Source of the DNA: Promethearchaeota archaeon
Lineage (GTDB): Archaea; Asgardarchaeota; Lokiarchaeia; Sigyniarchaeales; SOKP01
Assembly (NCBI GenBank): GCA_048940925.1
Contig: JBHLOC010000013.1
Location: forward strand, 1 to 30,878
DNA: 30,878 bases
Direction: 5' to 3'
Both the position numbers and the translations under genes were made by a program. Below are positions 3,054 through 21,019 of the stretch, one piece after another. The notes beneath the pieces are model-generated. The model ran no database searches, was not told the origin of the DNA, and worked only from the letters and a program-made list of their open reading frames with translations. The stretch's first letter is position 1, and every line of letters starts with the position of its first letter.

Positions 3054-4139
3054 TTATTGATTTACTAAATATTCATTCATTTCCATAAAGCTGCTTGTTC
3101 TAATCAGAGCTGCTTTAAGAAATTGGAACCCAATATCATATGTAGAACCATCTCCGCCAATATGAATAACCCATGGAATTTCATTAGTATATAAACCCTT
3201 TGTTTTCATTATTTTCTTTGCAGTTATTATTCCATCTGCTACTGTGGCACCAGATTCAAATAGGTGATGTACCCAAGGGACATTCCAGGAGGTTACATTA
3301 TCTTTTGAAGTTGATACTTCAGAACAGCTTGTATTATTTATATAAATAATATTATTCCCCGCCACAGCAGTTGCAGCAGTAGCCATTTGATTTAACACCA
3401 TACCTGCTCCACATCCAGGGCAGAGACCATGTCCTGGCTGCAGATGAGTTTGTGGCTCTAATTTTTTACGATTTATACGATAAATTTCAACTGGTTTTTC
3501 GGCACCAAAATTATCTATTAACATCTTTAACTTCTTATTTCTCTGCTCTGTTAAGTATATAATTTCGTCGATTTGCTTTTCCATAAATTTAGGTCTAAAT
3601 AAATGTCTAAATTTTCCCATAGACTTTAGGTATTCTACAAATTTTTCTTTATCAATATCTAATCCCCGATAATATGTAAAAACAGGAATTCCATCTTTCA
3701 CTCTTATAGTATATAACGGCCAATAACCGCAATCTGTTGCCAATTTTGAAATTTTAAGTGCATCCGCGGCTCCATGCCTCCATCCTCTCATACAATCTGA
3801 GTATGCTTGAATAAAAGCGGAGCCATTTGATTTGAGAGCATCCATCATTTTTCCCATAAAATCATTAGGATACGCTGGATTAACTGTAGCTAGGAAAAGT
3901 TTTTTAGTACCATAAAACGCAAATGGTGTAACTAAATCTTGTTTTACTCCAATCTTTCCAGGTATTTTTTCACCTGCGGGACCTGTTGTAGTGGATGCAT
4001 AGGGCGGTGTTCCTCCACTTTCCTGAATCCCAGTATTCATAAATGCTTCATTATCATAATTAAAGAACAATACATTACATTTTTCGTCTCTAGCTAGAAT
4101 ATCTTCAAAATTTATTATATTTCTTTCTGGTCTTGACAT
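3054..4139 (-). CDS. porB: pyruvate/2-oxoacid:ferredoxin oxidoreductase beta subunit, circularly permuted
   Basis: All PorB motifs are present with the halves swapped: YDNEAFMNTGIQ (aa 28-39), SDCMRGW, YWPLY and GKFRHLF come first, then PGHGLCPGCG (aa 235-244), TSCSEV, VPWVH and GGDGSTYDIGFQ (aa 328-339). ATG is 3 nt after the porA stop, with GGTGA 7 nt upstream. Confidence 0.88.
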   Translation of the reverse strand: MSRPERNIINFEDILARDEKCNVLFFNYDNEAFMNTGIQESGGTPPYASTTTGPAGEKIPGKIGVKQDLVTPFAFYGTKKLFLATVNPAYPNDFMGKMMDALKSNGSAFIQAYSDCMRGWRHGAADALKISKLATDCGYWPLYTIRVKDGIPVFTYYRGLDIDKEKFVEYLKSMGKFRHLFRPKFMEKQIDEIIYLTEQRNKKLKMLIDNFGAEKPVEIYRINRKKLEPQTHLQPGHGLCPGCGAGMVLNQMATAATAVAGNNIIYINNTSCSEVSTSKDNVTSWNVPWVHHLFESGATVADGIITAKKIMKTKGLYTNEIPWVIHIGGDGSTYDIGFQFLKAALIRTSSFMEMNEYLVNQ

Positions 4140-5387: not shown

Positions 5388-6371
5388 TCACTCTGGTGCG
5401 GCGCATGAAGCCGGACCTTGTTTTAATCTTTTACTAATCGCTTCAACTGGACAAACTTCAAGACAATTCTGACATGATTTGCAATGAGCCATATCAATGC
5501 CTATCATATGCCATAATCCATCTTCACCTTTTTCTCTCATTATCGCAAAATCAGGACAAATATACCAACATTGAGCACAATCTGTACACTTTTCCTCGTC
5601 CCAAATCATATCCCATTCTCCCCAAGAACCTGTATTTACTTGATTGCTACCTATTTCAATCACATCTTCATCACAGTACCACACACCCCTATCATCCACT
5701 TCTTTAAAGCCTGGTAGGCCAGGATATACTTGTTGCCAAGGAATTTTTGTGTCAACTGTGAAATCAGGATCAAGTCCAATGTCATATACACATGTTTCTT
5801 CCATCGCTTGTTTGATAGCCGTGACATTTTTTCCTGCTATTTCTCCTTTAAAACGTCTCATAATAGCATCTGCCAAAGCATCTATTGTAAATATCGGTCC
5901 AATCCTAAGAAGAGCACCAAGAATAATTGTATTTGTTATGTTTCTGCCTAATACTTCCAAAGCGATTCTAGTGGCATCAATAGTAGCTACATTAATATCA
6001 TTTCTCCCCACAATATTTTGAATATCTGCTTGATTTAAAGTAGTATTAACTACTAACCATCCTCCCTTTGCTAAACCTGCAGTTACATTGATTTCGCCTA
6101 GGAGAGAAGGATCTAATACACAAACAAAATGAGGACCATATACTTGTTCGTTTGATCTAACAAGATCATCATTTGCACTAAGTCTTACATAGCTCTCAGT
6201 GGGAGAACCCATTCTTTCAGCTCCAAAAAGAGGTTGGCATACCCCATAGCCATAGAAGGCTTCAACACATAAATTGGAGGCTGTCACACCTCCTTGTCCT
6301 CCACGTGCATGAAATCTTAAATTTACTACATGATCTTTCAGAATATCTTTTAGTTTTTCTTGAGTCAACAT
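5388..6371 (-). CDS. porC: pyruvate/2-oxoacid:ferredoxin oxidoreductase gamma subunit fused to delta (2x[4Fe-4S] ferredoxin)
   Basis: N-terminal RFHARGGQGGVTA, FGAERMGSP and NTIILGA (gamma); C-terminal TGSW, CTDCAQCWYICP and CKSCQNCLEVCP (delta). Confidence 0.9.
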   Translation of the reverse strand: MLTQEKLKDILKDHVVNLRFHARGGQGGVTASNLCVEAFYGYGVCQPLFGAERMGSPTESYVRLSANDDLVRSNEQVYGPHFVCVLDPSLLGEINVTAGLAKGGWLVVNTTLNQADIQNIVGRNDINVATIDATRIALEVLGRNITNTIILGALLRIGPIFTIDALADAIMRRFKGEIAGKNVTAIKQAMEETCVYDIGLDPDFTVDTKIPWQQVYPGLPGFKEVDDRGVWYCDEDVIEIGSNQVNTGSWGEWDMIWDEEKCTDCAQCWYICPDFAIMREKGEDGLWHMIGIDMAHCKSCQNCLEVCPVEAISKRLKQGPASCAAPE

Positions 6372-6520: not shown

Positions 6521-7768
6521 TCAATTGAATTCATTATTTAACTTCTCAATAACATCTATGCATAGAAGTAAAACATTTTTTATTCCTTCCTTCGATATTA
6601 AATTTATATTGTCTTTATTTGTGTGCACATATTTCAAACCAGGTTGAGAGCCAATCCAACATGCTTCAAATCCTTCATGTACAACAGGCATATAATCAGA
6701 CCACGCTCCAGTAGGAAGATAAATATCTTTAATGCTGATTTTTAATTTTTTTGCACTCTGCAAAAAAAGTTTTGCTAATTTCTTTGAGGTGGTTTTGCGA
6801 GGTATTCCATAAGATGTAATTAATCTAATTAACTCTTTTCCGCCAACTAAATCAAAATTAATAAAATAAGTTGAATTTCTATCAAAATTTTTTTTATACT
6901 TTTGGATAAAATGCTTTGCGCCTCCTAAATTCAATTCTTCTGAACTAGTGCATAAAAAAATGAAATCAAGATTATCAACAGGATTATTTTTATAAAATCG
7001 AGCAAGTTCAATAACAGTACCTACAGCAGTAGCATTATCAAAAGCTCCAGGAGAATCATTAGCTGTTTTGTTAAAATAATTTAAGCATCCTATTATAACA
7101 ATAACTATACTCATTACTAATAATATATGATTTAATAAGAGAACATCAAAAGAAATGAGGATTTTCACTATACTGAGAATTAAATACGTAATATATAATC
7201 CTAAACATCCAAACGTAAATATCATGAATATGAGAATTCTGATTGATGATGGGAATGTTTGTGATTTAGAATCCCAGTGAGCAATGAATATGACTTTTGC
7301 TTTTGAATTATTACTTTTTGAATCGACAAATATATTTTCAGTTTCATAGTTTTTCTGTTCATTTTTTAGTAATTTGATTTCACTAGTAGTTGCTAAGCTC
7401 AGTACTTTATACGCAATAAAGAAACCTAAACAAATACAACCGATTGTAATGAAGGGATTGATATAGAAGGTTAACGCTGAAAAAAATAAACAAAAACCAA
7501 TAGGAAAAAAAGCATATCGTAAAACAATCCAGTTATAAAATGAAGTTTTGAATTTATCTTGATTCACAATGTTGAATCCTGCCTTATTAAATTCGTCTAA
7601 TACAATTTGATTGGCTCTTTTTTCTCCTTCTGATCCAACTAAGCGTGGGAATGCGAGTTTTTCTGCTATTGCATATACATTTTCTTGATTAATTGTCATC
7701 TGATGATCCTTTTGATTTATTTGTTTTCTATCTAAATTATCTTTTTCTGGTTTTACATCCATAATCAT
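6521..7768 (-). CDS. membrane-embedded M28 family Zn-peptidase
   Basis: PRLVGSEGE, AHWDSK, PGAFDNATAV, SSEELNLGG, NFDLVG, WSDY and HTNKD; two pairs of hydrophobic helices interrupt the catalytic domain. Confidence 0.85.
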   Translation of the reverse strand: MIMDVKPEKDNLDRKQINQKDHQMTINQENVYAIAEKLAFPRLVGSEGEKRANQIVLDEFNKAGFNIVNQDKFKTSFYNWIVLRYAFFPIGFCLFFSALTFYINPFITIGCICLGFFIAYKVLSLATTSEIKLLKNEQKNYETENIFVDSKSNNSKAKVIFIAHWDSKSQTFPSSIRILIFMIFTFGCLGLYITYLILSIVKILISFDVLLLNHILLVMSIVIVIIGCLNYFNKTANDSPGAFDNATAVGTVIELARFYKNNPVDNLDFIFLCTSSEELNLGGAKHFIQKYKKNFDRNSTYFINFDLVGGKELIRLITSYGIPRKTTSKKLAKLFLQSAKKLKISIKDIYLPTGAWSDYMPVVHEGFEACWIGSQPGLKYVHTNKDNINLISKEGIKNVLLLCIDVIEKLNNEFN

Positions 7769-20155: not shown

Positions 20156-21019
20156 TTATTTAACTTTCTTTTTTCTTGCTTGAATTCGAACTTGTTCTAT
20201 TTTTTTGCTAAATCCTTCTCGCTCCTCTTCAACAAATTCACCGCATATAATAATCCCTTTCTTGTAATCATAAGTAGCTTCGTGAGGTGGCCAATCAACT
20301 TTAATCTTAATTTGCTTTTTTAACCAGTCTAACATCTCCACCGCACCACCTAACCTATTTTTAGACCCATATTGGACAAAACAAGGAGCAAGGACCTCTA
20401 TAAAACTGAATCCTTGATTGTCTAAACATTTAAAAATGCTCTTCTGTAATCTAAGGGTGTCGTATCCTGGCCATCTCGCAACATATGTAGCTCCTGCTGA
20501 AGCTGCTAAACTTACCAAATTAAAAGGAGGCTCCACATTACCATATGGTGTTGTAGCAGTTATATCGCCAAGCTGACTTGTAGGGGCTACTTGTCCTCCT
20601 GTCATGCCATATATATTGTTATTTATACAAAGAACAGTTAACTCTATATTTCTTCTTGCTGCATGGATAAAATGATTCCCTCCTATAGCAAAAAGATCTC
20701 CATCTCCCGATAAAACTATAACCTTTAATTTAGGATTTGCTAATTTTATACCAGTTGCAAAAGGTATAGCTCTCCCATGGGTAGTATGGAAAGCAGGTGC
20801 TTTAAAACAACCGCTGGAACGACCAGTACATCCTATGCCAGAGACAATGGCATAATCCTCAAATGTCAATCCCCTTTCTTTTAAACAGGTGGTAATTGAT
20901 GTAATTACTGTTCCAATTAAACAGCCAGGACAGAAAATAAATCGGTTTAAATTTAACATATCAATTAGGGGGTTACTAAGAGTTTCAGAAGGGATTGATT
21001 TTTGATCTGTTGGACTCAT
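20156..21019 (-). CDS. korB: 2-oxoacid (2-oxoglutarate-type):ferredoxin oxidoreductase beta subunit
   Basis: CPGC, SGIGCTGR, HTTHGRAIPFATG, GDGD...NNNIYGMTGGQ, LAPC in canonical order. Confidence 0.9.
   Translation of the reverse strand: MSPTDQKSIPSETLSNPLIDMLNLNRFIFCPGCLIGTVITSITTCLKERGLTFEDYAIVSGIGCTGRSSGCFKAPAFHTTHGRAIPFATGIKLANPKLKVIVLSGDGDLFAIGGNHFIHAARRNIELTVLCINNNIYGMTGGQVAPTSQLGDITATTPYGNVEPPFNLVSLAASAGATYVARWPGYDTLRLQKSIFKCLDNQGFSFIEVLAPCFVQYGSKNRLGGAVEMLDWLKKQIKIKVDWPPHEATYDYKKGIIICGEFVEEEREGFSKKIEQVRIQARKKKVK

Follow-up and report, generated by a model that had tools for sequence, protein, structure and literature searches.

In a 30,878-nucleotide stretch of a Promethearchaeota archaeon genome (contig JBHLOC010000013.1, positions 1 to 30,878; hereafter the window), a single open frame on the minus strand (3054..4139, read 4139->3054; 361 residues; P0001) encodes what we regard, with a probability of about 0.88, as a genuine and functional, circularly permuted beta subunit, bearing thiamine diphosphate (ThDP) and [4Fe-4S] sites, of a three-gene 2-oxoacid:ferredoxin oxidoreductase (OFOR) of the POR/VOR type, with the permutation having arisen once. 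Anaerobic carbon and amino-acid metabolism depend on OFORs as core enzymes, and few signatures in enzymology are as well conserved as their ThDP motif. Direct support comes from the segment order and its conservation, from purifying selection and the gene partners, and from the transcripts recorded for the cultured Promethearchaeum syntrophicum MK-D1, and, on the strength of its homology, motifs, and partners, P0001 is assigned to the OFOR beta subunits of the PorB/VorB/OOR group. A first-pass annotation, made from the DNA letters alone, had proposed a natural circular permutation of a core ThDP enzyme subunit at 3054-4139, and this proposal is now supported by the segment order itself, 31 homologues, and 12 loci, with the position standing as given and the minus strand, which had been left unstated, supplied.

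The swapped order of the two halves, as claimed at that stage, is borne out by two kinds of alignment. In a phmmer search against all chains of the Protein Data Bank (PDB), residues 226-347 of P0001 align to residues 3-115 of PorB from Methanosarcina acetivorans (9bt4_C), and residues 23-193 align to its residues 119-282, giving an overall E-value of 3e-47. In fact, each PorB-type PDB chain yields two stretches against P0001, and the beta subunit of oxalate oxidoreductase (5c4i_C) shows the same two-stretch swapped match. Using a canonical profile built from 57 canonical-order betas, we found that profile positions 163-340 match approximately residues 20-205, and positions 46-167 approximately residues 223-352, in P0001 and 30 homologues. 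Taken together, the two stretches of P0001 cover 3-282 of 9bt4_C and 46-340 of the profile, and homology to PorB extends over the whole PP domain, as in PorB/VorB-type betas. Here, two segments lie in swapped order on the same homologue and neither is present twice, which is the arrangement of a circular permutant. The window also offers the internal control that had been pointed out for it, a KorB-type beta gene of normal order (20156..21019, minus) with one continuous TPP_enzyme_C match and a single profile domain, and canonical order is likewise found in two PorB-type betas of the same genome.

In canonical terms, the cut separates a stretch ending in GDGxxxDIGxxxLxxAxER from one beginning with GHDIxYVxYDNE, and therefore falls in the loop between the post-GDG helix and the DNE strand, just where the break had been predicted and where the profile match now places it. 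This corresponds to PorB residues 115-119 and divides the ThDP/Mg motif into a GDG part and a DNE part. The canonical C-terminal-half segment comprises residues 22-200 (3540..4076, minus; profile 165-338; 9bt4_C 119-282) and holds the strand and the YDNE/NTG part of the ThDP-Mg motif, C116, WPLY, and GKFRHL, with YDNE, the second half of the motif, situated near the N-terminus at residues 28-31 (4047..4058, minus). The canonical N-terminal-half segment, residues 226-352 (3084..3464, minus; profile 46-167; 9bt4_C 3-115), holds PGHGLCPGCG (C240 and C243), NNTSC (C272), and GGDGSTYDIG with the helix that follows, and here GDG, the first half of the motif, is located near the C-terminus at residues 329-331 (3147..3155, minus). 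Located at opposite chain ends, G329-D330-G331, N27-Y-D-N-E31, and N35-T-G37 together comprise the ThDP/Mg residues and are invariant in 31 sequences. Moreover, the four cysteines expected for the proximal cluster (C116, C240, C243, and C272) align to Cys columns of both 9bt4_C and 1b0p, and are invariant in the same set. Each of the motif halves and ligands that had been listed from the sequence is thus present.

Between the two profile matches lies the junction of the old C- and N-termini (residues 201-225; 3465..3539, minus). An in-frame linker had been anticipated at this point and does exist, but its extent is slightly narrower than the approximate 205-232 originally claimed. Canonical tails explain most of it, leaving about 5-15 residues unaligned. 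The new N-terminal tail (residues 1-21; 4077..4139, minus) has the conserved pattern NIIxxxDLLxRxE and does not align to the canonical profile, while one HMMER alignment tentatively sets residues 12-22 against the final part of the helix after GDG in 1b0p. The new C-terminal tail (residues 353-361, together with the stop codon; 3054..3083, minus) is placed in unaligned insert states by hmmalign, in which the two halves overlap by about four profile positions (164-167). In the permuted beta gene itself, we found no meaningful internal DNA repeat, in agreement with the earlier statement that it lacks duplicated sequence.

A protein search across 5.8 billion proteins gave 191 matches to P0001, of which more than 100 are full length, share 55-90% identity, and stem from many independent assemblies. 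The permuted order was seen in 31 of 31 aligned homologues and, with an identical profile split, in all 12 orthologous loci fetched from genomes. Orthologues occur in the closed genomes of cultured MK-D1 (QEE14985.1, DSAG12_00808) and cultured Ca. Lokiarchaeum ossiferum B-35 (UYP46588.1, NEF87_002873), and by exact look-up Ca. Harpocratesius repetitus also carries one. Because the same order recurs in these homologues and loci, closed genomes included, the swapped order is confirmed as that of a genuine gene and not of a misassembly, and the concern that close relatives might prove canonical has not materialized.

The permuted beta gene is the last in a tight three-gene unit, being preceded by genes for a fused gamma-delta subunit (5388..6371, minus; Pfam POR domain and two 4Fe-4S motifs, Fer4) and the cognate alpha subunit (P0002; 4143..5372, minus; Pfam POR_N and PFOR_II), with gaps of 15 and 3 nucleotides. 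Upstream of the beta ATG are the porA stop codon TAA and then 3 nucleotides, and a GGTGA Shine-Dalgarno-like site precedes the ATG; both the ribosome-binding site and the close coupling to porA noted at first reading can be confirmed in the DNA. Encoding alongside alpha and gamma/delta partners is what characterizes a PorB/VorB-type beta, and this holds in the window. Among the 12 loci, the gamma-delta, alpha, beta order is conserved in 10 and alpha adjoins beta in 11, whereas in the unlinked cases (G279 and G129) the cognate partners are found elsewhere in the genome. The alpha subunit has kept T45, E73, and R123, which we take to align with the 2-oxoacid-binding Thr (T45) and Arg (R123) and the ThDP-activating Glu (E73) of D. 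africanus PFOR, and its best NCBIfam model is PorA_Arch, at 298 bits against a cut-off of 550.

With regard to the unlinked loci, the permuted beta of G279 (L006; G279:C1:1502548-1503597) is about 0.54 Mb from its gamma-delta/alpha pair (G279:C1:2045955-2048108), and the gamma-delta gene of G129 is on a separate contig from the permuted beta. All of the permuted-beta operons examined have a gamma-delta fusion, whereas the canonical porCDAB operons of other Asgard classes (L022-L027) have one gene for each.

The ratio of nonsynonymous to synonymous substitution rates (dN/dS) was calculated against a 94%-identical orthologue (dS 0.65) and amounts to 0.04 overall, 0.03 in each half, 0.03 in the new N-terminal tail, and 0.14 in the junction, values that indicate strong purifying selection on the permuted beta, the junction included. 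In the RNA sequencing data of MK-D1, DSAG12_00808, DSAG12_00809, and DSAG12_00810 have values of 286, 372, and 314, which are like those of other catabolic genes (PMC7015854, Suppl. Table 4). These three genes are labeled there as PFOR beta, alpha, and delta/gamma by KEGG/COG assignment only, and the permutation goes unmentioned (PMC7015854).

The AlphaFold2 model of P0001 is compact, with a predicted template modeling score (pTM) of 0.85 and a predicted local distance difference test score (pLDDT) of 79, and its junction is formed by a helix end and a strand at a pLDDT of about 87. PFOR, OOR, and POR chains are the nearest solved folds, as given by Foldseek (E-value of 1.8e-10 with 9bt4_C) and VIA-align (Z 11.5-13.5, root mean square deviation (rmsd) 2.7-4.3, 170-190 residues aligned). 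A model of the alpha-beta complex scored 0.85 versus 0.01 for the best of three controls, though similar complexes have been solved and the score may reflect this likeness; of the solved complexes, 58 of 80 attain the mark applied to such scores, as do 2 of 110 mismatched pairs. At least 93% of the contacts agree between runs, and the partner pLDDT is at least 83. Here, the predicted alpha interface on beta spans residues 262-322 and 339-358 and includes the new C-terminal helix and tail, with tail residues 355 and 357-358 being within the predicted contact set.

As we picture the enzyme, its beta chain would begin just before the DNE strand, proceed through the old C-terminal half and the short junction to the old N-terminus with its CxxC, C, and GDG elements, and end past the post-GDG helix. 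In the fold, the GDG...DNE/NTG ThDP-Mg site would be restored from the two chain ends and the proximal cluster from the four cysteines, while the beta subunit would pair with alpha as usual. From the sequence, we infer an enzyme that would oxidize pyruvate or other amino-acid-derived 2-oxoacids, yielding acyl-CoA and reduced ferredoxin. An amino-acid-derived substrate would suit both an M28 peptidase gene next to the operon and the fermentation of amino acids, of the Loki type, that MK-D1 is described as carrying out (PMC7015854). The chemistry is presumed to be ordinary, and it is the architecture that is unusual.

In a distribution search of 400 Asgard (phylum) genomes, full-length matches (E-values of 1e-124 to 1e-241, 51-94% identity) were confined to the class of the window's genome (families f1-f7), with one exception. 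The exception, a fragment of 266 residues and 88% identity (G075:C23:2002-2799), sits at the end of a contig assigned to another class and is probably the product of mis-binning. Other Asgard classes returned half-length matches only, and the eight that were fetched are canonical-order PorB. The suggestion that the permutation marks a lineage is upheld by this survey, apart from the single fragment. Among the listed representatives from a search of 1.84 billion cluster representatives, matches across the permuted junction were limited to P0123 (full length) and P0124 (a junction-spanning fragment), and four single-stretch matches (75-130 residues, 77-85% identity) look like fragments of the permuted-beta family; the remainder are two-stretch matches, as expected of canonical order, or short half-length pieces. 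Within the window's genus, alpha and permuted beta are both present in 37 genomes and both lacking in 12, with 5 genomes being discordant, the gene lying at the edge of a contig in at least 3 of them. Since the two genes are co-present or co-absent, the permuted unit is dispensable and gained or lost as a whole. Moreover, MK-D1, L. ossiferum, Harpocratesius, and the window genome each have two canonical PorB/VorB-type betas as well, and the permuted beta is thus an accessory paralogue and not the sole POR-type enzyme of these genomes.

For the phylogenetic tree, the permuted sequences were reordered to canonical order, for alignment only, and combined with 71 canonical betas. The permuted clade is monophyletic, with a support of 100 in the Shimodaira-Hasegawa-like approximate likelihood ratio test (SH-aLRT), and has a stem of 1.19 changes per column and short internal branches. 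Its sister is a group with canonical PorB of other Asgard classes, at a support of 94, which is under the 95% mark for strong support. When searched separately, the two halves find their highest scores in that one group of canonical Asgard PorB; this same-source test uses the overlap of top matches only, as the Spearman rho of 0.09 between the half scores over all canonical proteins is uninformative with such narrow, pre-selected scores. On our reading, the permutation arose once and before the radiation of the Lokiarchaeum/Promethearchaeum class. Because the canonical operons differ in gene set-up and alpha identity, the permuted unit is a strongly diverged, class-specific paralogue and not a simple rearrangement in place. 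As for the likeliest route, we favor, on weak evidence, a scenario in which a canonical porB of the Asgard type was duplicated in tandem, the copies became fused in frame, and the outer halves were then lost. A junction made of canonical tails, the slight overlap of the halves, and the pairing of the N-terminal tail with the post-GDG helix would all fit such a route. The C-terminal tail sequence MNEYL resembles DNEAY, by eye only, and is weak as a relic of duplication.

Several observations weigh against our interpretation of a functional, once-permuted subunit. AlphaFold2 confidence is low in residues 32-67, the ThDP loop region, and only there. Foldseek and VIA-align, both sequential aligners, span just 173-208 residues or about half of the P0001 model, a coverage we ascribe to the expected failure of such aligners across a permutation. 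The alpha subunit lies below every NCBIfam equivalog cut-off, those of the VOR, OOR, and Pad models included, and P0002 is just 31-36% identical to the alphas of the nearest canonical operons. The operon is missing from about one-quarter of the same-genus genomes, some of which are 98-99% complete. Support for the duplication route is weak, amounting to the four-position overlap and the tentative N-tail match, and neither a tandem nor a split intermediate was found among the representatives examined; specifically, none of the top 150 representatives has the more than two stretches of a tandem beta-beta form. The same low-confidence loop and the dispensability of the operon, along with a break inside the GDG...N motif and the stem branch of 1.19, would also be in keeping with a real gene whose product is a catalytically dead or repurposed paralogue (e.g., structural or regulatory), the cut in the ThDP motif having destroyed cofactor binding. 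We consider this very unlikely, as the ThDP/Mg, [4Fe-4S], and substrate-carboxylate residues are all invariant across orthologues of 51-94% identity, dN/dS stands at 0.03 for either half, the gene is accompanied, usually side by side, by a full set of partner subunits, and its transcription in MK-D1 is at the level of other catabolic genes. An assembly or gene-calling artefact, in which a collapsed tandem duplicate or a chimeric contig mimics a permuted gene, could be suspected in a genome of 90 contigs with an estimated contamination of 8.4%, yet more than 100 proteins from independent assemblies (55-90% identity) show this single frame and order, as do 12 of 12 loci, among them those of cultured MK-D1 and L. 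ossiferum, each with its genome in a single contig. With no internal DNA repeat and with purifying selection acting across the junction, this explanation is already effectively refuted.

Alternatively, the permuted gene might stem from a split at the GDG/DNE loop, with the half-genes then being reordered and fused again, or be a chimera of halves from two paralogues. Some short public proteins begin exactly at the break (P0205 and P0272), and an intein-like LAGLIDADG insertion right after GDG in P0222 suggests that this region tolerates interruption. However, neither P0205, 8 nucleotides short of a contig end, nor P0272, whose 3.6-kb contig carries no partners, is convincing as a split form, and the chimeric version is disfavored because the two halves share their nearest canonical clade. 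Moreover, canonical tails explain the junction apart from about 5-15 residues, and an overlap of about four positions is what duplication and trimming predict. Such an origin by fission or chimerism we therefore judge unlikely, albeit less so than a dead paralogue, and a single permutation by tandem duplication, fusion, and trimming remains the favored account. In all, P0205, P0237, P0257, P0259, and P0272, each starting at the break, were considered as split forms and rejected, with three short proteins lacking a start methionine in addition to the contig placements of P0205 and P0272 given above. The metagenomic P0222 has a LAGLIDADG_3 homing-endonuclease domain at residues 100-159 ahead of a PorB fragment, whose match starts at model position 102, just past GDG and about 16 residues upstream of the permutation break, an arrangement suggestive of an intein-type insertion into the ThDP motif.

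Compared with M. acetivorans PorB (9bt4 chain C; NF008819), the permuted beta is alike in the homology of both halves, the ThDP-Mg residues, the four [4Fe-4S] cysteines, and in having as partners a PorA-like alpha and PorC/PorD-like modules, but it is unlike in that the order is swapped at PorB 115-119, gamma and delta are fused, and alpha is under the PorA cut-off. The canonical Asgard porC-porD-porA-porB operons (L022-L027) comprise the same subunit set and contain the nearest canonical relatives of both halves, though here the beta is of normal order and 326-328 residues in length, and gamma and delta are separate. Oxalate oxidoreductase beta from Moorella thermoacetica (5c4i chain C) is the second-best solved relative (VIA-align Z 11.9, rmsd 2.9, 173 residues), but it has the canonical order, and the scores from oxalate-specific models are far below cut-off. 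ThDP enzyme families are known to differ in the order of their PYR and PP domains, as in transketolase versus pyruvate decarboxylase. While these families and the permuted beta both form the ThDP site from segments whose linear order varies by lineage, whole domains move in the former, whereas in the latter the cut is inside the PP domain, within the GDG...N motif. In the full-text literature searched, which included few subscription journals, we came across no account of an OFOR with permuted order or of a ThDP enzyme permuted within a domain, and with this coverage the earlier impression of an undescribed permutation is sustained. Somewhat more speculatively, and with the odds against it, the permutation, the gamma-delta fusion, and the diverged alpha might together define a new OFOR subclass, with its chain ends at both the ThDP site and the alpha interface. 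If so, its substrate range, cofactor exchange, or regulation would be unlike that of canonical POR/VOR, as, for example, in a dedicated amino-acid-derived 2-oxoacid oxidoreductase of Loki-class archaea.

The swapped order also affects annotation, and the expectation that hidden Markov models would mis-score such a protein has proved right. The canonical-order family model for PorB in NCBIfam (NF008819) gives P0001 205.4 bits in two stretches, short of its cut-off of 405, and TPP_enzyme_C of Pfam (PF02775) gives 22.2 bits versus a cut-off of 21.9, covering only profile positions 68-150. The NCBI name of the MK-D1, L. ossiferum, and Harpocratesius orthologues is 'hypothetical protein', a label that we attribute to curated models failing on the swapped order, and with such labels, Asgard metabolic reconstructions can undercount POR-type enzymes. 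More broadly, a natural permutation through the ThDP motif, under strong selection across a whole Asgard class, would mean that the PP domain tolerates termini at the cofactor site. The permuted beta provides a ready-made case for how permutations arise and become fixed, as well as a clean shared derived character of the Lokiarchaeum/Promethearchaeum class, and with two cultured strains carrying it, biochemistry is feasible.

Among the orthologues, those of Harpocratesius, MK-D1, and L. ossiferum (L003, L004, and L005; P0274, P0302, and P0273) have an insertion of about 18 residues (GMAK...-type) after approximately residue 158. One in-frame stop each is found in the matches of G163, G274, G273, G159, and G123 (TGA, TGA, TGA, TAA, and TAG, respectively), and these copies could be pseudogenes, sequencing errors, or the result of read-through of an insert. 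In a same-genus genome, an extra partial copy (G178:C42:8055-8399; residues 247-361, 76% identity) is situated about 2.5 kb from the full-length permuted gene. Lastly, the operon in the window is flanked on its 3' side by a crotonase-family gene and a UPF0047 (YjbQ-like) gene (1757-2979, minus) and on its 5' side by the M28 peptidase gene (6521-7768, minus), with these neighbors being conserved only in close relatives (L009 and L010).

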